From the NCBI GenBank assembly GCA_052034955.1, contig JBPOHZ010000008.1, positions 27,614 to 91,613 of the forward strand: DNA of 64,000 nucleotides, given 5' to 3'. Of the stretch, positions 1 to 56,563 are shown piece by piece (within the stretch, counting starts at the first letter, position 1; each line of letters opens with the position of its first letter). The position numbers and the translations under genes were made by a program. This DNA is from Candidatus Saccharimonadota bacterium. GTDB lineage: Bacteria; Patescibacteriota; Saccharimonadia; Saccharimonadales; AWTP1-31. Below the pieces are notes generated by a model. That model did no database searches. It was not told the origin of the DNA and was given only the letters and a program-made list of their open reading frames with translations.

Positions 1-588
1 AGTGGATTTAGCATAGAGAACAAATACGACTGGAAAGTTAGCGAGAAAGATACATCGGCGAATTACAAAGGCTTAACTTCGGGAGAGAAAATAACCCTCT
101 CGACTGTTGAGTTTGCAATAAACGAAAAACAGAAATTAGTATTTGAAGCAGATGCCAACTTAGTGGGTAACGATTGTGTGCCGAAGAAAACAGATAAGCC
201 TTTCCAGAAAGGTAATAACTGCAGCTCATTTACAAGAATAAAAGCCGATAAATTACCTGAATCAAGTTATGTAAAGAGTGCTCAAAACTCTTCATCCGCT
301 GACGCATATGTGTCAACTTATAAATACATGGGTAGGGATGACAGTAAGCCATTTACTATGGTAGGCATTGAAAATATAGATAATACTACAGGTGTACGTG
401 ATCTAAACACGGCAGTTATGGGCTATTTTATGCCTTACACTTCAGTAGATGTGTTGACAGAAAAGACAGCTAATGTCCCATATACAATTTATAACAAAAT
501 AATTGACGCCAAAGGCAATCCAACTCAGCTAATTGATTCAGATATAGCAAAAGTTGAAGAAGTTTTAAAAACCTTCAAAATCATCTAG
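1..588 (+). CDS. Hypothetical protein, C-terminal part (5' end lies upstream of the window)
   Basis: Frame +1 is open from nt 1 to TAG 586-588. The track ORF 163..588 is only the part after an internal GTG. No recognisable motifs. Confidence 0.5.
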   Translation, partial: SGFSIENKYDWKVSEKDTSANYKGLTSGEKITLSTVEFAINEKQKLVFEADANLVGNDCVPKKTDKPFQKGNNCSSFTRIKADKLPESSYVKSAQNSSSADAYVSTYKYMGRDDSKPFTMVGIENIDNTTGVRDLNTAVMGYFMPYTSVDVLTEKTANVPYTIYNKIIDAKGNPTQLIDSDIAKVEEVLKTFKII

Positions 589-9985: not shown

Positions 9986-10398
9986 GGGGCTGAATTTTAA
10001 GCTCGACGTTGGACTTTAACAGACTTTAATGGCAGGCCGGATTGATCTACACGTTAGCTGGATCAAAATTATAGTTGCAGAAAAATCTACAGCTCGCGGA
10101 TCTCTAATTAAAGAACTAGCTGCAAAGCTTGTTCCTAATTCAGAGTTCGCACTAGCAGCCTAATTTAATTAGACTGCCGCTTCATAAGTGACATCAGATA
10201 ATTTATGTCAGCGCTATATACTTCTGATTGCTCCAGACTTATTTGCCCATAAGTTTGGCTAAGCCTTAGGGCTGCAGCCATTACATTTTTTGTTTGTTTA
10301 CACTGTTTTGGCTAAAGAAACATCCAAACAAACTAAGCCTGTAGTCATAAAGCCATGTTAACTGACGGACGCGGGGGCAGTACCCGCCAGCTCCACCA
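9986..10398 (+). ncRNA. ssrA: tmRNA (SsrA)
   Basis: 5' GGGGCUGA pairs with 3' CAGCUCC-A-CCA, including the G3:U wobble. T-stem is GCGGG/CCCGC. An internal tag reading frame ends ...NSEFALAA-TAA (stop 10161-10163). An intrinsic terminator follows. The resume codon is uncertain. Confidence 0.9.
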
Positions 10399-20272: not shown

Positions 20273-20337
20273 AAGATAATTGACACAAATACAAAAATAA
20301 TATATCGTATTCAATGACTATTAAGTCATACGTTGAT

Positions 20338-20392
20338 CTGCATATCTGTATTTGGTCGCTTGGATAAGCAGGGAGTAAGTAGCGAAACCGGG
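20338..20392 (+). promoter_or_regulatory. Candidate cis-regulatory pseudoknot RNA, copy D
   Basis: P1 is CUGCAUAUC/GAUAAGCAG. The loop carries GGUCGCU, complementary to the downstream AGCGA-AA-CC. A TTGACA box lies at 20280-20285. The RBS-sequestering hairpin UCUCUAUC/GAUAGGAGA (20424-20446) precedes ATG 20452. Confidence 0.6.
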
Positions 20393-20451
20393 ACGAATCT
20401 CTCTTGAATACAAGTTTGTTCGATCTCTATCAATTAAGATAGGAGACCTTT

Positions 20452-20892
20452 ATGTCTACAGAAAAAGAACTTAGCCCGCATCAAATACAAAGCAACAGGT
20501 TGTATAACAGAGCCTTAGACAAATTTCGTAGTGCAACTATTCAACTAGGTGTATTTGTATGTGGTGTCGCAGGTATTCCATTCGTGAGCGATTTTATCCA
20601 AGATATTGACCAAGCAAAAATAGTGGAAGCAGCATTAATTGGCAGTTACAGCACGGCCGTATTGGCTGTTGGAGCATGTAGCGTAAAGAATTTTGCGGAT
20701 GGTATATCGCTTAGTTCTGCATCTCACACAATTGAAGCTCTAGGCAATATCGCACAAGTATCGAGTCCGGCTGAAAGCTCAAATGTTTTGCCCCAGACTG
20801 AGCTAATGACTCAACCTGCTATTGAGGCCATTCAAGATATGGGAAATGATGTTATGAATGCTACACAACCGAGGTGGCGTGATGATGTCTAA
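20452..20892 (+). CDS. Hypothetical membrane protein
   Basis: 146-aa ORF with AGGAG 6 nt upstream and hydrophobic segments. Confidence 0.55.
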   Translation: MSTEKELSPHQIQSNRLYNRALDKFRSATIQLGVFVCGVAGIPFVSDFIQDIDQAKIVEAALIGSYSTAVLAVGACSVKNFADGISLSSASHTIEALGNIAQVSSPAESSNVLPQTELMTQPAIEAIQDMGNDVMNATQPRWRDDV

Positions 20893-21121
20893 CAGACGGC
20901 GCGGCGAGTACATCCCTTCTAGTCATCGTGTTCCAGATTGGAACGATGATTGCATGGATGGTGATATTGCAATGACAGTGTTTGCTACGAGCGCCTCAAT
21001 ATTATTCTCTACAGTCGCGGTAGTTGTGCTAGCAAATTGCCTTTCCGATCCAGAACCTCAGGTAGTTGTTACTCCGCCGGTTGTTATAACTATCGATACA
21101 TCAATACCTCCACAAAGGTAA
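20882..21121 (+). CDS. Hypothetical small membrane protein
   Basis: GAGGTGG lies 4-7 nt upstream of tandem ATGs at 20882 and 20885. The start overlaps the upstream stop, suggesting translational coupling. One TM helix. Confidence 0.45.
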   Translation: MMSNRRRGEYIPSSHRVPDWNDDCMDGDIAMTVFATSASILFSTVAVVVLANCLSDPEPQVVVTPPVVITIDTSIPPQR

Positions 21122-44400: not shown

Positions 44401-44430
44401 TTGACAACGCTAGTCAATAGGATATAAAAT
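44401..44430 (+). promoter_or_regulatory. Sigma70-like promoter for RNA copy A
   Basis: TTGACA (44401-44406), then a 16-18 nt spacer, then TATAAAAT (44423-44430). Confidence 0.55.
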
Positions 44431-44469
44431 ACTATTACTACTAAGTCTATTTGTTGTGTAGGCATCGAT

Positions 44470-44521
44470 ACCTCGCACTAATCTGGACGCTTGTGAAAGG
44501 TTGAGCCAATAGCGTAACCGG
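44470..44521 (+). promoter_or_regulatory. Candidate cis-regulatory pseudoknot RNA, copy A
   Basis: P1 is ACCUCGCAC/GUGAAAGGU (7 of 9 positions paired). The loop carries GGACGCU (44485-44491), complementary to AGCGU-AA-CC (44511-44519). Confidence 0.6.
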
Positions 44522-44546
44522 ACCTTCAAGTAGACGAAGTGGTGTT

Positions 44547-44579
44547 CCCCGGGCAGAGATGTCCGGGGTTTTTGTTTTG
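44547..44579 (+). terminator. Intrinsic terminator following RNA copy A
   Basis: Stem CCCCGG/CCGGGG with a 10-nt loop, followed by TTTTTGTTTT. Confidence 0.8.
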
Positions 44580-44594
44580 TATAGAACCAGGTAA

Positions 44595-44623
44595 TTGACA
44601 AATAATAAACAAAGTCGTAAAAT
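44595..44623 (+). promoter_or_regulatory. Sigma70-like promoter for RNA copy B and gene 44763
   Basis: TTGACA, a 17-nt spacer, then TAAAAT. Confidence 0.6.
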
Positions 44624-44660
44624 ATGACTAATCAAAGCAATTTGGTTGTCGACTAAGAAG

Positions 44661-44712
44661 CAGTACTCGTATTTGGACGCTTGAGTATTGTGGAGTCACT
44701 AGCGTAACCGGG
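44661..44712 (+). promoter_or_regulatory. Candidate cis-regulatory pseudoknot RNA, copy B
   Basis: P1 is CAGUACUCG/UGAGUAUUG (9 bp, 2 G-U). Loop GGACGCU (44675-44681) is complementary to AGCGU-AA-CC (44701-44709). An RBS-sequestering hairpin lies at 44741-44759. Confidence 0.6.
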
Positions 44713-44762
44713 CAACAAGCTACTCTATTGAGTATCTCGAGCTCTTATAAATAAGGAGCAAT

Positions 44763-46163
44763 ATGAATCACGAAAGATTAGTCGGCAGCTTGCTTGCCGT
44801 AGGAATGCTGGCGTCTACACTTGCGCCACAAGATACAAGTGAATTTCAAGTTATAGCTAAAACCGAAGATGTCACTCAACAAGTAGGTAGTATAGCTTGC
44901 ACTATAAATGAATCGGCTGGACTGCATGGCTATCCAATACCATTTTTAATAGATAGGGCATATGCCCATCCCGACCCAGGTGCATTAGTCAAAAAACCCA
45001 GTGAAGAAGTCGAAGATTATGTAACGGCTGAAGAATTGATTTCCGATTTAGATTATCGTCTTCCATTTCCTTTAAAGTCTTCTGAGATAAGTGATACTCC
45101 AAGTCATATGTATCGAGAAAACATTAAAAACGTAGTAGCTGATCTCGCCAGGGATCTAGAAGGCCTGCCTTTATCGTTTATAGAAAGAGGATTTATACAG
45201 GGAATTGCCTTTCGAACAGAGTTAAGAGATGAAAATGACGAAGTTGTTTCATCATTATTTGGTGATGATGGAATACTAAGACTCAATATGACATTGCCAA
45301 GCGATAAATACGGCGAAATGTATTTCGGACCAAAAGCAATGTGGCAAGGAATTTTAAAAGAAGCGGGTCTAGCTGATTGCGATGAGTATAAACGACTTAT
45401 GGAACTAGACACAGAGTTTATGACATTTGGTGGTGACGCCTCTCGTTATGTCGATCGAGTTCTTCCACACAAGGATGTTCGAGATGTTGCTCTTGATATG
45501 CTTCGAATGGGTGCCGGATTCGATGAAGCATGGGACTACTTTGAAGAGCATACCCAGCTGGTATTGCTTGATAATTCCGAAAACTTAGATAGTACTGCAG
45601 ATAAGAATTTTAGAAAGGTACTATCTATTGTTAATGGCATCGATCCAAAACTCAGTCGACAGTTACTAGGCGCTGCTATGCAAAATGGAGATGATAGAAA
45701 AATAGATACACTTCGTGAGACTGAAAAACTTTGGCGTCGTTGGGCTAGCGAAAGGGCACTTCGACAATACCTTGGATATGATAAGCCGGAGATTGATGAT
45801 ATGGAACCTATCTATCCAGCATCCAGAGCAATTGATTCGGATGGTGAGTTAGATTTGCCATACATTGATGTACCAGTTGGGGAGTATACCGTTGGAGTCA
45901 GATTCGACCATCAACGAGAACGTTTATACTCGATTGTAAGCGGCGTTGGTGTCGGAGAATGGGGAACTATCGAACAAAATATAGCTAGCCGTGAATTTGA
46001 TGAACTATATGTTCGGGCTGCATTTTCACAGATACTCGGAGTAGCCCCAGAAGAACTTGTGCTTGAAGAATTTGTTTCGACTAGAGAAGACGGATATAGT
46101 GATCGAGCTATAGCAGTTGATGCAACTGATTGGGAAGGTTTTAGCAAGATTGTCGAGAAATAA
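44763..46163 (+). CDS. Hypothetical secreted protein
   Basis: 466-aa ORF with AAGGAG 6 nt upstream and an N-terminal signal-like LVGSLLAVGMLASTLAP. No known motif recognised. Confidence 0.65.
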   Translation: MNHERLVGSLLAVGMLASTLAPQDTSEFQVIAKTEDVTQQVGSIACTINESAGLHGYPIPFLIDRAYAHPDPGALVKKPSEEVEDYVTAEELISDLDYRLPFPLKSSEISDTPSHMYRENIKNVVADLARDLEGLPLSFIERGFIQGIAFRTELRDENDEVVSSLFGDDGILRLNMTLPSDKYGEMYFGPKAMWQGILKEAGLADCDEYKRLMELDTEFMTFGGDASRYVDRVLPHKDVRDVALDMLRMGAGFDEAWDYFEEHTQLVLLDNSENLDSTADKNFRKVLSIVNGIDPKLSRQLLGAAMQNGDDRKIDTLRETEKLWRRWASERALRQYLGYDKPEIDDMEPIYPASRAIDSDGELDLPYIDVPVGEYTVGVRFDHQRERLYSIVSGVGVGEWGTIEQNIASREFDELYVRAAFSQILGVAPEELVLEEFVSTREDGYSDRAIAVDATDWEGFSKIVEK

Positions 46164-46274
46164 CACAACACTTTCTATCTAATAAGTATATATTTTAGAT
46201 AACTTTGTTGACAAATATCAAACTTACGTAGTACGCTTAAATCAATCAAAGCAATTTGGTTGTAGACAATGAAA

Positions 46275-46326
46275 CAATACTCGTATTTGGACGCTTGAGT
46301 ATTGCGGAGTCAGTAGCGTAACCGGG
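46275..46326 (+). promoter_or_regulatory. Candidate cis-regulatory pseudoknot RNA, copy C
   Basis: P1 is CAAUACUCG/UGAGUAUUG. The G-to-A change relative to copy B converts a G-U pair into A-U. GGACGCU is complementary to AGCGU-AA-CC. TTGACA lies at 46208-46213. Confidence 0.6.
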
Positions 46327-46352
46327 CAACGAAAAACTAATCTCATATAAGA

Positions 46353-46389
46353 GCGGTTTGGCCCATACGCCAAGCCGCTTTTGATTTTT
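46353..46389 (+). terminator. Intrinsic terminator following RNA copy C
   Basis: Stem GCGGTTTGGC/GCCAAGCCGC (one G-U), loop CCATAC, then TTTTGATTTTT. Confidence 0.75.
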
Positions 46390-46454
46390 ATAAACAAGCT
46401 AGAAACCTTGGTGAGGGGTGTTTTCTGCTGCCTAAAAACTGGAAGGCTTTGAAA

Positions 46455-49331
46455 ATGAAACATTTTAATGATGGTATGCCGTCTGCCGACTCTGCGGAGT
46501 TAGAGGCTATTTTGACTTACGTTAGGCGTGACGATGAACCGCTTTTCTGTGATCCAAATTCCATTCCTGGCCCCGACGAAATTATGCAAGAGCTGGGCAT
46601 TGACGAGGTGACGATTCCACGAATGCCTCGACTAAGAGCTGACCAACGATTTGATTATGAATCAACTAGGACTTTATCAGCAAGGGATGTGGGGGCGCGT
46701 CGTTTGCCTAGTAATGCCACCGTAGTTAGGGATAAAGATGGACAGTTCCGAGTAGACTTTAGGGTTGACCCCATGAGTCCAGCGAATATCGTGCGAACTC
46801 AAGCCGCTCTTACGGGGATGTTTGGACGTGCGGCTAGCGAAGCATTAGTTAACCCATCGGTTCAAAAAGAAGTAGATCCTCGTGATCGTCCCAATCCTCT
46901 TCCGCCGGGTTCTGTAAAAACTCTAGACGAATATATGCGGGAAGCGGTGGTATTTGGGGCTGATGCCCTACAAGAACGTAAAGACGAAGTGCGTTCAGTA
47001 GTTGCTGCAAGTGTCATAGCTGGTGTGTTGATGACCGGTACACCCCAGATTAGTGCGCCATCAAGACCTGCAGCTGTGTCGGCTCAGCCAGCGAAGCGAG
47101 CAGGCGAATCTCCGAAGGATATGAAATCAAAGGAATCCACTGATCCAGTAGAACGTGTACTTCCGATTAGCCTGGTTTCCGCAAGTTACGTGCCAAAAAA
47201 ACCGACACATTTGCGCGCAGTCGCTATTGCATTGGGTGTTCCAACAAAGCAAATTAAGGCAGCTAACCCTCATCTTGATCCAAAAGCAGAAATTCCTGCT
47301 GGAACAGTTATAAATGCCGAAGTTAAAACCTCATCGCTGACTATAGATGAGTCAATGCCCGTTGGCTCTGTTGCAAGGGCATTTGGTTTGACTGACGATG
47401 CTGTACTAAGCGTTAATGAACCTAACCAAGATGGACTTCTTCAGGGACGAATAAATATTCCCCGAACGCTAGTCAAGTTAGATGACGGAATGAGGCCTAA
47501 TATTGGAGCAGTGGCAAAAGAATATGGACTTGGCCCCGATCAGGCCCGTGATCTCCATTATGCCAATAATCACACTCCTGCCGGTATTCTGGTTTTGCCG
47601 GTCAATACCGAGATTGGCGATCATCCAGATGCCGTTAATCAGCTGGTCGCCATTGCTCAGTCAGAAAGCGAAGTTATAGATACTCCGGCAATAGTTGTTC
47701 CCGATGCAACGGTTCCTGTTGACAACCCTCCCGCCGAACCACCGATTGTCGAGACTCCACCTGCTGAACCAGCGGTAGTTGAAGCGCCGCCGGTTGTCGA
47801 GACTCCTCCCGCCGAACCGGTAGAGACTACCGTTCCACCGGTCTCCGATCCCGAGTCTACGCAACTAGACAACACGTCAACTACCTTACCTACTGCCGAA
47901 CCGCCAGTTATCGAAACACCGCCCGCCGAACCGCCGGTAGTCGAAACACCGCCGGTTGTCGAGACTCCTCCCGCCGAACCAGCGGTAGTTGAAGCGCCGC
48001 CGGTAGTCGAGACTCCACCCGCCGAACCGCCAGTTCAGCCTCCAGTACCAACCGGTGCTCCCGATGTCTTTGCATCACAGCGGGATAACCCGAGTATGGG
48101 CGAAAGACCGAATGGTAAGCCGATCAACTCTACAAATACCTGTAACATAACTTCGTTAACCATGGCGCTTCAGGGGCTAGGCTTGCTCCAGGGTGTGGCA
48201 GATGGTGCGCAGCCTGAACAGCTGGTGGTTTTGAAATACTTGAGTGATCTCGCCAAAAAAGGTCGTGATATAACCGATCCATTTACCTTACAAAAACTTG
48301 CTGAGCAATTTGGTGCAAACGGCGAAGTACGTGAGGTGCAGAATAACTTCCTATTCTGGGTGGATCTAAATAATCGACTACTAAACGGTGAGAAGGTAAT
48401 CATGAGCATCTCGGGTCATATAGTTCATGTTAAAGAAATGAATATGATGGGTATCGTCGTCGACGATCCTGCTGGCGCCTCGGTCCTACTTCACAAAGTA
48501 AATGGTCGTTGGGTATCGAGTAGTGATCCGAATATTACCGACCGCTCCGGAACAGAATGGTATGAATTTAGTGCACTCAACAGTAAAAACCCAGCATCAC
48601 CAAATCAACCCGGACAGCCTGGCGACAATCATCTTTGGCCATGGTCAGATGTGGGTGAGTATCAGCACTTTAATTGGGTCTTAACGCTCCGCGGAAATTC
48701 TCCTACGCCTCCACCGGCTCCGCCAGTACCGCCAGTAGCTCCACCAGCCGCAGAAGTACCAGCTCCGGAGCAGCCTCCAGTAGAGACCCAAGCCCCCGTA
48801 ACGGAAGAAGTAGATTATGCAAAACTCGACGCATTACAAAGAAATATTCTACCGGTTACGGCAGGCATACCTGCCGAGTACCTCCCGCTCATTAAGGCTA
48901 GCGAGCACTTTTCGGCCATCCAGCTTGCCGCTCAGATAAAGAACGAGAGTAACTTTAATCCAAATGCCCGAAGCGGTGCTGGGGCTGTTGGCCTTGGACA
49001 GTTTACGAATGGAGCTTGGGATGAAATGGGCAGAAGATATCCTGAGCTCACCAACCCAAATGCCAGTCGTAATGATCCCGTCGAGTCAATTATTCGACAG
49101 CGACTTTATATGGACGATATGTACGATCTTGTTCAGAAGTATTTATCAGAAGGCAAGATAAGCGGCGATCCTATTGAGTTGACCTACGCAGCATACAACG
49201 CCGGGATGGGTAATGTCTTGAAGTACAAGGGTGTCCCACCGTTCAAAGAAACTAAAACATACATCGCACGAAATAAGCAGACAATCATGGAATTCGTCCT
49301 ACAAGTAGCGACGGAAAATCCAGGAATTTAA
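46455..49331 (+). CDS. Large secreted cell-wall-active protein: LysM-like repeats, Pro-rich linkers, Cys/His peptidase-like domain, C-terminal GH23 lytic transglycosylase (SLT)
   Basis: GGAAGG lies 8 nt upstream of ATG 46455. Three LysM-like segments. TCNITSL (Cys codon 48141-48143) and SGHIVHV (His codon 48417-48419). SLT motifs IKNESNFNPNA (Glu codon 48945-48947), GLGQF and AYNAGMGNV. Confidence 0.75.
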   Translation: MKHFNDGMPSADSAELEAILTYVRRDDEPLFCDPNSIPGPDEIMQELGIDEVTIPRMPRLRADQRFDYESTRTLSARDVGARRLPSNATVVRDKDGQFRVDFRVDPMSPANIVRTQAALTGMFGRAASEALVNPSVQKEVDPRDRPNPLPPGSVKTLDEYMREAVVFGADALQERKDEVRSVVAASVIAGVLMTGTPQISAPSRPAAVSAQPAKRAGESPKDMKSKESTDPVERVLPISLVSASYVPKKPTHLRAVAIALGVPTKQIKAANPHLDPKAEIPAGTVINAEVKTSSLTIDESMPVGSVARAFGLTDDAVLSVNEPNQDGLLQGRINIPRTLVKLDDGMRPNIGAVAKEYGLGPDQARDLHYANNHTPAGILVLPVNTEIGDHPDAVNQLVAIAQSESEVIDTPAIVVPDATVPVDNPPAEPPIVETPPAEPAVVEAPPVVETPPAEPVETTVPPVSDPESTQLDNTSTTLPTAEPPVIETPPAEPPVVETPPVVETPPAEPAVVEAPPVVETPPAEPPVQPPVPTGAPDVFASQRDNPSMGERPNGKPINSTNTCNITSLTMALQGLGLLQGVADGAQPEQLVVLKYLSDLAKKGRDITDPFTLQKLAEQFGANGEVREVQNNFLFWVDLNNRLLNGEKVIMSISGHIVHVKEMNMMGIVVDDPAGASVLLHKVNGRWVSSSDPNITDRSGTEWYEFSALNSKNPASPNQPGQPGDNHLWPWSDVGEYQHFNWVLTLRGNSPTPPPAPPVPPVAPPAAEVPAPEQPPVETQAPVTEEVDYAKLDALQRNILPVTAGIPAEYLPLIKASEHFSAIQLAAQIKNESNFNPNARSGAGAVGLGQFTNGAWDEMGRRYPELTNPNASRNDPVESIIRQRLYMDDMYDLVQKYLSEGKISGDPIELTYAAYNAGMGNVLKYKGVPPFKETKTYIARNKQTIMEFVLQVATENPGI
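47728..48055 (+). repeat. Pro-rich tandem repeat region (V/I)ETPPAEP(P/A)VV containing long duplicated DNA blocks
   Basis: GTTGTCGAGACTCCTCCCGCCGAACC and GAACCAGCGGTAGTTGAAGCGCCGCCGG each occur twice, about 200 nt apart. Confidence 0.85.
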
Positions 49332-56476: not shown

Positions 56477-56563
56477 GCCGCGATGGCGGAATTGGTAGAC
56501 GCGCTAGCTTCAGGAGTTAGTGGGGGTAACCCCGTGGAGGTTCAAGTCCTCTTCGCGGCACCA
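56477..56563 (+). tRNA. tRNA-Leu (anticodon CAG), type II with a long variable arm and encoded CCA
   Basis: Acceptor GCCGCGA/TCGCGGC. Anticodon stem CTAGC/GTTAG with loop TTCAGGA. Variable arm GGGG-TAA-CCCC. T arm GGAGG-TTCAAGT-CCTCT. Confidence 0.93.

Follow-up and report, generated by a model that had tools for sequence, protein, structure and literature searches.

Copy D, the fourth occurrence of a recurrent motif in the 64-kb stretch of DNA analysed here (the window), is in all likelihood a c-di-GMP-II riboswitch aptamer of a Candidatus Saccharibacteria (TM7) genome, transcribed from its own TTGACA promoter within the 5' leader shared by two orphan ORFs for small membrane proteins (probability roughly 0.85). 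Judged from sequence comparison, the motif is a genuine folded RNA of this already described riboswitch class. It adds no new kind of RNA, as its fold, pseudoknot and ligand class are established; what is mildly new is confined to its phylogenetic setting and to the hypervariable cargo. Copy D lies in the 179-nt gap between the end of the mnmA ORF (20272; a match to Pfam tRNA_Me_trans) and the ATG of the next ORF in the window's ORF list (20452), about 24 kb from copies A-C, exactly where the original prediction had located it.

Fold and covariation of copy D

The Rfam model of the c-di-GMP-II class, RF01786, matches copy D over its full length (model positions 1-84 of 84) at 50.5 bits, with an E-value of 3.8e-8 over the whole 64-kb window and of 1.8e-10 over 301 nt. 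This is 3 bits under the RF01786 gathering score of 53.5, which is an operational annotation threshold and not a structural feature, and the shortfall arises because P1 is mismatched. Under E-value thresholds RF01786 is the best model for copy D. A second model of the same Rfam clan (c-di-GMP-II), RF03169 or c-di-GMP-II-GAG, scores 41.2 bits and passes its own gathering score of 40. Alignment to the consensus shows that the conserved core stretches UGA, UAUUUGG, GGAG and AGU.GCG.AACCG are all intact. Plain minimum free energy (MFE) folding of the leader performs no better than shuffles (z = -0.37), and is uninformative here because the fold depends on a pseudoknot, an element that is likewise absent from the encoding of the Rfam covariance model. 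The components of the leader and of the genes behind it are as follows, in window coordinates.

20280-20308, + strand: sigma-70-like promoter of copy D (10/12 matches)
20317-20402, + strand: c-di-GMP-II class aptamer, copy D (full-length Rfam model match)
20325-20327, + strand: P1 5' strand GUC, pairing with GAC at 20392-94 (Rfam alignment)
20329-20331, + strand: P2 5' strand UAC, pairing with GUA at 20375-77
20332-20337, + strand: internal loop GUUGAU (alignment to consensus)
20338-20346, + strand: P3 5' strand CUGCAUAUC (DNA CTGCATATC; sequence, covariation)
20354-20360, + strand: pseudoknot 5' strand GGUCGCU (DNA GGTCGCT), in the P3 loop (covariation)
20363-20371, + strand: P3 3' strand GAUAAGCAG (DNA GATAAGCAG; sequence, covariation)
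20375-20377, + strand: P2 3' strand GUA, inside GGAGUA
20381-20389, + strand: pseudoknot 3' strand AGCGA-AA-CC (DNA AGCGAAACC; covariation)
20392-20402, + strand: nominal P1 3' strand GACGAAUCUCU (Rfam alignment)
20424-20446, + strand: Shine-Dalgarno (SD)-sequestering hairpin UCUCUAUC / GAUAGGAGA (DNA TCTCTATC / GATAGGAGA; folding)
20452-20892, + strand: first downstream ORF, 146 aa, two hydrophobic segments, orphan
20858-21121, + strand: second downstream ORF, 87 aa, one hydrophobic segment, overlapping the first ORF and upstream of alaS (21183)

Promoter (20280-20308), aptamer, SD hairpin and ATG (20452) follow one another on the sense strand. The promoter consists of the -35 box TTGACA (20280-85), present as originally claimed, a 17-nt spacer and the -10 box TATCGT (20303-08), and transcription is predicted to start near 20315.

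By comparison with the class, the RNA forms P2, a kink-turn-like loop and P3, probably closed by a short P1, and a 7-bp pseudoknot reaches from the P3 loop (GGUCGCU) to AGCGA..CC. Class membership further suggests that the ligand would be c-di-GMP, bound where the solved C. acetobutylicum aptamer binds it, inside the core made up of pseudoknot and triple helix. This pseudoknot and the ligand-binding triple helix are known from the Clostridium acetobutylicum crystal structure 3Q3Z, as outlined in PMC7583470, and the kink-turn of 3Q3Z is described in an account of that motif (PMC4316175). The primary reports on the class are Lee et al. 2010 and Smith et al. 2011, as cited through PMC7583470 and PMC4316175. 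With the RF01786 class and 3Q3Z, copy D shares the helices P2 and P3, probably a short form of P1, the kink-turn, the conserved core and the pseudoknot that ties the P3 loop to the ..GCG.AACC segment. It likewise lies in a sense-strand 5' leader and, as elsewhere in the class, several copies, some of them in tandem, are found in one genome. It differs in its degenerate P1, to which the 3-bit deficit belongs, in a pseudoknot pair that is U-A where the consensus has G-C (a difference within family variation), and in its host, a Saccharibacteria (Patescibacteria) genome.

All 7 pairs of the pseudoknot form in copy D (U20360-A20381, C59-G82, G58-C83, C57-G84, U20356-A20385, G55-C88 and G54-C89). 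The original prediction had described this helix as a loop and its downstream partner without recognising the pseudoknot of the known class, and the nine-position helix that it had named P1 is the P3 of the class; the pairing itself is present, at 8 of 9 positions with a single A.A mismatch. The GUUGAU loop and GGA (20372-74) together are the counterpart of the conserved UGA / GGAG kink-turn region, and the linker GGAGU, which had been noted as retained and is present at 20372-76 (GGAGT in DNA), comprises the 3' half of that region plus P2. P2 itself covaries, being UAC/GUA in copy D and GAC/GUC in copies B and C. P1 is the weak part. Just three contiguous pairs (GUC/GAC) remain and the rest of the nominal 11-bp helix is mostly mismatched, 6 of the 11 model pairs being non-canonical, compared with a P1 of 6-7 bp in the orthologues of copy D described below; in addition, P1 has a competitor in a 5' hairpin predicted at 20315-28 (probability 0.98).

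Evidence for the fold beyond the window comes from metagenome contigs, scanned using only the motif's 3' half (GGAGNNANTRGCGNAACCG) so that the P3 loop remained unselected. About 60 aptamers, of 33-70% GC, were recognised by covariance model among the 120 loci returned, and an alignment of 62 aptamers was assembled from the window copies, three Saccharibacteria orthologues and the metagenomes. Standard pairs occupy 87.3% of cells in this alignment, compared with 60.4% when partners are shuffled, and none of 500 shuffles reaches the observed value; sliding the partners by 1-3 columns leaves 33-41% of cells paired. P3 is 95% paired, with all 8 of its 8 pairs changed on both sides, and the pseudoknot helix is 97% paired, its two free positions covarying. 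The seven window and orthologue sequences behave in the same way: 84% of cells are paired, against 64% with shuffled and 29-39% with slid partners, all cells of the pseudoknot and of P2 are paired (100%), and changes on both sides affect two pairs in the pseudoknot and two of the three in P2. Across the seven- and 62-sequence alignments, P3 is 88-95% and P2 95-100% paired. Since the pairing is far above the shuffled and slid controls and the Rfam E-value holds for the whole window, the motif is not a chance occurrence. The double covariation that had been proposed from the four copies stands, as covariation of both helices is seen among the copies of the window and again among 58 further aptamers.

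The exchange of A-U for U-A noted in copy D coincides exactly, as claimed, with one of the pseudoknot pairs (U20356-A20385, against A-U in copies A-C). At the corresponding columns 48/125, U-A occurs in 26 of 58 aptamers, G-C in 13 and A-U in 11, and 8 carry non-standard combinations (A.A in 6, G.A in 2). In this sample U-A is the commonest state (26/58) and copy D no unusual variant, and the pair is usually kept but not obligatory. The adjacent pseudoknot pair, columns 54/121, is U-A in 39 aptamers, C-G in 10, U.G in 4 and otherwise composed in 3. The A.A combination, GGACGCU facing AGCGAAACC, is found in high-scoring, mostly low-GC metagenome aptamers (L165, L099, L100, L158, L193 and L115), and G.A in the metagenome loci L089 and L190. 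Another metagenome contig, L184, bears a c-di-GMP-II-like aptamer at 4-86 (-) and, starting some 300 nt away on the other strand, group II intron domains (381-662 and 2090-2159, +).

Expression platform and direction of the switch

Downstream of the aptamer, the arms 20424-31 and 20438-46 form a hairpin of 8 bp with one bulged G and a predicted energy of -6.2 kcal/mol. It covers the SD sequence AGGAG (20441-45), whose predicted unpaired probability is 0.14-0.19. The sequestering hairpin of the original prediction is therefore present, but it is weak, and D itself shows no evident coupling between it and the aptamer. A search near and downstream of D found no intrinsic terminator and, because an SD-sequestering hairpin is present instead, control is expected at the level of translation: binding of c-di-GMP would alter access to the SD sequence. 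An OFF switch is modestly favoured for copy D, the opposite of the characterised c-di-GMP-II example, in which translation is turned ON (PMC7583470).

The case for an OFF layout is built largely on the three orthologues. Their P1 5' strand (CAGAGCAA) lies within CAGAGCAAUUGC, which mimics the SD region (AGGAGCAA), and is perfectly complementary over 8 bp to the anti-SD strand UUGCUCUG. Because this 5' strand shares the nucleotides GCAA with the P1 of the Rfam register, P1 and the pairing of the 5' strand with the anti-SD are mutually exclusive. In forced-state folding, the anti-SD pairs with the SD once P1 is formed and the pseudoknot nucleotides are reserved, and the SD is open once the 5' strand is paired with the anti-SD; the SD-open state is favoured by 4-10 kcal/mol, not counting the energies of pseudoknot and ligand. 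The orthologues would then alternate between two arrangements. With P1 unlocked, the SD mimic CAGAGCAA would take the anti-SD UUGCUCUG and leave the SD free; with P1 locked, the anti-SD would be released to close the SD. Copy D has a weaker equivalent, in which GGGACGA (20390-96) can pair with UCGAUCUC (20420-27; -6.8 kcal/mol, pair probability ~0.35). Forced-state folding of D is ambiguous between ON and OFF, the coupling between aptamer and SD hairpin being weak, and its bound-like secondary structure lies 13 kcal/mol above the MFE when pseudoknot and ligand terms are left out.

A real, if lesser, chance belongs to the reverse arrangement, in which the same aptamer and ligand constitute an ON switch and binding keeps the anti-SD occupied, for example through an outer helix stacked on a short P1, thereby exposing the SD. 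Such a device has the precedent of the published ON case (PMC7583470), and the nested ViennaRNA folds of two of the orthologues (L001 and L002) do combine the pairing of 5' strand and anti-SD with a 4-bp P1 (UUGC/GCAA) and intact P2 and P3; this alternative register of P1, however, leaves 6-12 unpaired nucleotides between ACCG and P1, where the family has 1-2. In copy D the aptamer would be enclosed by a perfect 8-bp outer helix, GUAUUCAA (20307-14) with UUGAAUAC (20404-11), but the anti-SD is not involved in it, it could arise by chance with a probability of ~0.04, and the strand at 20307-14 runs into the predicted -10 box and is probably absent from the primary transcript. On the two latter grounds the outer helix was set aside as the true P1, although it is kept as a possibility. 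In layout, GUAUUCAA / UUGAAUAC is analogous to the CAGAGCAA / UUGCUCUG pair of the orthologues. The OFF direction remains modestly favoured for copy D.

Orthologues, insertion hotspot and competing readings

The neighbourhood of copy D was followed in 80 loci gathered by MnmA from species-representative genomes, all of Candidatus Saccharibacteria / Patescibacteria, the best three MnmA relatives being 80-81% identical. When a covariance model built from the four window copies was run on these loci, the three closest relatives proved to carry orthologues of D, each in the gap that separates mnmA from alaS (L002 5091-5168, L003 5093-5174 and L001 5924-6001); no aptamer was found by this model in the other 77 Saccharibacteria mnmA loci. 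The orthologues keep the U-A pair of D and replace the neighbouring, fifth pseudoknot pair, U-A, with C-G (GGUCGCC / GGCGAAACC). They score 50.6-52.8 bits with RF01786 and 43.6-50 bits with RF03169, the latter being the family reported at gathering thresholds.

What lies behind the aptamer is far less constant. The cargo ORFs of the four genomes, for small membrane or secreted proteins, show no mutual similarity; the 236-aa cargo ORF of L002 has a CAP/SCP domain. For the small membrane-protein gene pair that had been described behind copy D, the two ORFs and their hydrophobic segments are present, but both are orphans with no detectable homologues: neither the 146-aa nor the 87-aa product has a Pfam match, and the only match of the 146-aa protein among 5.8 billion clusters is itself. 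These ORFs could be spurious. In 68 of the 80 loci alaS follows mnmA in the same orientation, across a gap of 16-3684 nt, and almost every one of the 202 ORFs that the related loci carry in this mnmA-alaS gap is a singleton. On both counts the gap behaves like a hypervariable hotspot for insertions, set between two housekeeping genes. Two such gaps contain divergent GGDEF-domain ORFs (PF00990; L054 5033-5962, -, 36.6 bits; L070 5074-6150, +, 47.3 bits), so that cyclase-like genes exist in the phylum, and at the very hotspot of copy D. Since these ORFs occur at the same locus in other Saccharibacteria, an endogenous c-di-GMP ligand is plausible; within the 64-kb window itself, no GGDEF, EAL or HD-GYP motif of a diguanylate cyclase or phosphodiesterase was found.

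Alternatively, copy D could be the decaying, non-functional relic of a duplicated riboswitch in a fast-turnover hotspot. Its eroded P1, a score under the gathering score, the orphan ORFs downstream, an expression platform poorly coupled to the aptamer and the hypervariability of the gap (16-3684 nt across 68 genomes) are all compatible with decay. On the other hand, the conserved core nucleotides are all intact in D, relatives at ~80% MnmA identity keep the aptamer in place, and the changes in P3, P2 and pseudoknot are compensatory, not random. The promoter tells the same way, with a consensus -35 box retained at the distance seen in the other copies. A relic is accordingly improbable.

Slightly less probable again is that copy D and its orthologues form a specificity variant of the c-di-GMP-II-GAG type, sensing a ligand other than c-di-GMP. 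All four are reported as RF03169 at gathering thresholds (41.2-50 bits, against 40), and the RF03169 consensus has the same U-A and C-G pairs in its pseudoknot. This labelling follows from their position just under the RF01786 gathering score, and their RF01786 bit scores (50.5-52.8) exceed those for RF03169. Other aptamers with the U-A pair and GAA pass the RF01786 gathering score (L098 60.8, L088 57, L187 55.3 and L112 55.1). Taking the meaning of the name 'GAG' from the two Rfam consensus lines, the canonical class reads ...GUGCAACCG with the loop UAUuUGG and the GAG class ...GGCGAGACCG with the loop aacaCGG. Copy D reads GCGAAACCG and UAUUUGG; all it has in common with the GAG consensus is the U-A pair of the pseudoknot. 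Its GAAACC (GCGAAACC), compared with GAGACC in the RF03169 consensus and GCAACC in that of RF01786, keeps the canonical conserved A, and its loop is that of RF01786, not aacaCGG. Copy D has, to be sure, the clan and fold of RF03169 and passes its gathering score (41.2 vs 40), but it differs by GAAACC and UAUUUGG, precisely the positions that distinguish the variant; the variant core nucleotides (GAGACC, aacaCGG) are absent and these sites are in the canonical state. On this comparison copy D is a canonical c-di-GMP-II aptamer with a weak P1.

The same comparison exposes a boundary effect in Rfam, by which canonical AACCG-core aptamers slightly under the RF01786 gathering score are labelled RF03169 despite having no GAGACC core. 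Aptamers that carry the label in this way are the following.

Window 20317-20402: copy D
L001 5921-6004, L002 5088-5171 and L003 5092-5175: its three orthologues
L084, L085, L145, L150, L154, L160 and L169: further aptamers

For annotation this is a pitfall, as aptamers with the U-A pair just below the RF01786 threshold receive the 'GAG' label in spite of a canonical core.

Finally, the reading of copy D as a DNA site bound by protein, or as an inverted repeat that arose by chance, for which nothing speaks beyond the presence of inverted repeats, is scarcely credible and was rejected, given a strand-specific, full-length match to a curated structured-RNA model and pairing that is kept while the sequence changes, including G-U pairs meaningful only in RNA; the original preference for a folded RNA over a protein-binding site holds.

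The other copies and a possible regulon

Copies A-C, all on the + strand, are summarised with their surroundings below.

44449-44531, + strand: copy A aptamer (RF01786, 45.3 bits, under E-value thresholds), with its own promoter at 44401-30 and followed by an intrinsic terminator at 44547-68
44639-44722, + strand: copy B aptamer (RF01786, 56 bits), with its own promoter at 44595-44623 and a 466-aa ORF downstream
46253-46336, + strand: copy C aptamer (RF01786, 63.3 bits), followed by a terminator at 46348-83 and then by a 960-aa protein

TTGACA occurs 15 times on the plus strand of the 64-kb window, and 4 of the 15 sit 37-48 nt upstream of the four aptamers, each with an acceptable -10 box 16-18 nt further on. 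This regular placement argues for an independent promoter for each copy. Copies A and B stand in tandem (44401-44722), each with an 11/12 promoter match, and the terminator of A precedes the promoter of B (44595). With its own promoter and a terminator ahead of that of B, copy A could therefore give rise to a short stand-alone aptamer transcript of ~130 nt plus read-through. Tandem c-di-GMP-II arrangements are already known (PMC9481103).

The 466-aa ORF behind copies A/B (44763-46163) has a signal-peptide-like N-terminus and no Pfam match. The 960-aa protein behind copy C (window 46253-49331 including the aptamer) combines proline-rich repeats with a C-terminal SLT lytic-transglycosylase domain (PF01464, 49 bits). 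In this epibiont, an enzyme that cuts the cell wall would thus come under c-di-GMP control.

The c-di-GMP-I (GEMM-I) riboswitch is a leader element controlling surface or motility genes. Copy D shares with it the presumed ligand and a similar role, and its fold is unrelated; the Rfam scan of the window returned no GEMM-I match. To our knowledge, regulation in Saccharibacteria is almost unstudied. The literature searched yielded no paper relating c-di-GMP riboswitches, of class II or any other, to Saccharibacteria, Patescibacteria or the candidate phyla radiation (CPR), and no mention of c-di-GMP or riboswitch control in papers on Saccharibacteria. Against this background copy D points to c-di-GMP signalling in Saccharibacteria, and a handful of orphan surface or secreted proteins become candidates for lifestyle switching on the host surface.

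A more far-reaching and rather doubtful extension is that some environmental Saccharibacteria run a c-di-GMP riboswitch regulon of OFF-type switches for the secreted and surface proteins of their epibiotic lifestyle, with copy D as a 'regulatory socket'. It takes as its measure the number of aptamers, at least four of them within 64 kb, the genome being assumed to be ~1 Mb in size. If it were true, the targets would be the 960-aa SLT protein, the 466-aa signal-peptide-like protein and lineage-specific small membrane proteins, unrelated cargo genes would be swapped in behind a conserved copy D in the mnmA-alaS hotspot, and a 5' SD mimic would underlie the OFF-type switches, which would differ in this from the characterised ON example.

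Two further RNA genes were encountered in the window: a tmRNA gene at 9986-10398 (85 bits), reported by Rfam and missed by ARAGORN, and a tRNA-Leu(CAG) gene at 56477-56563.
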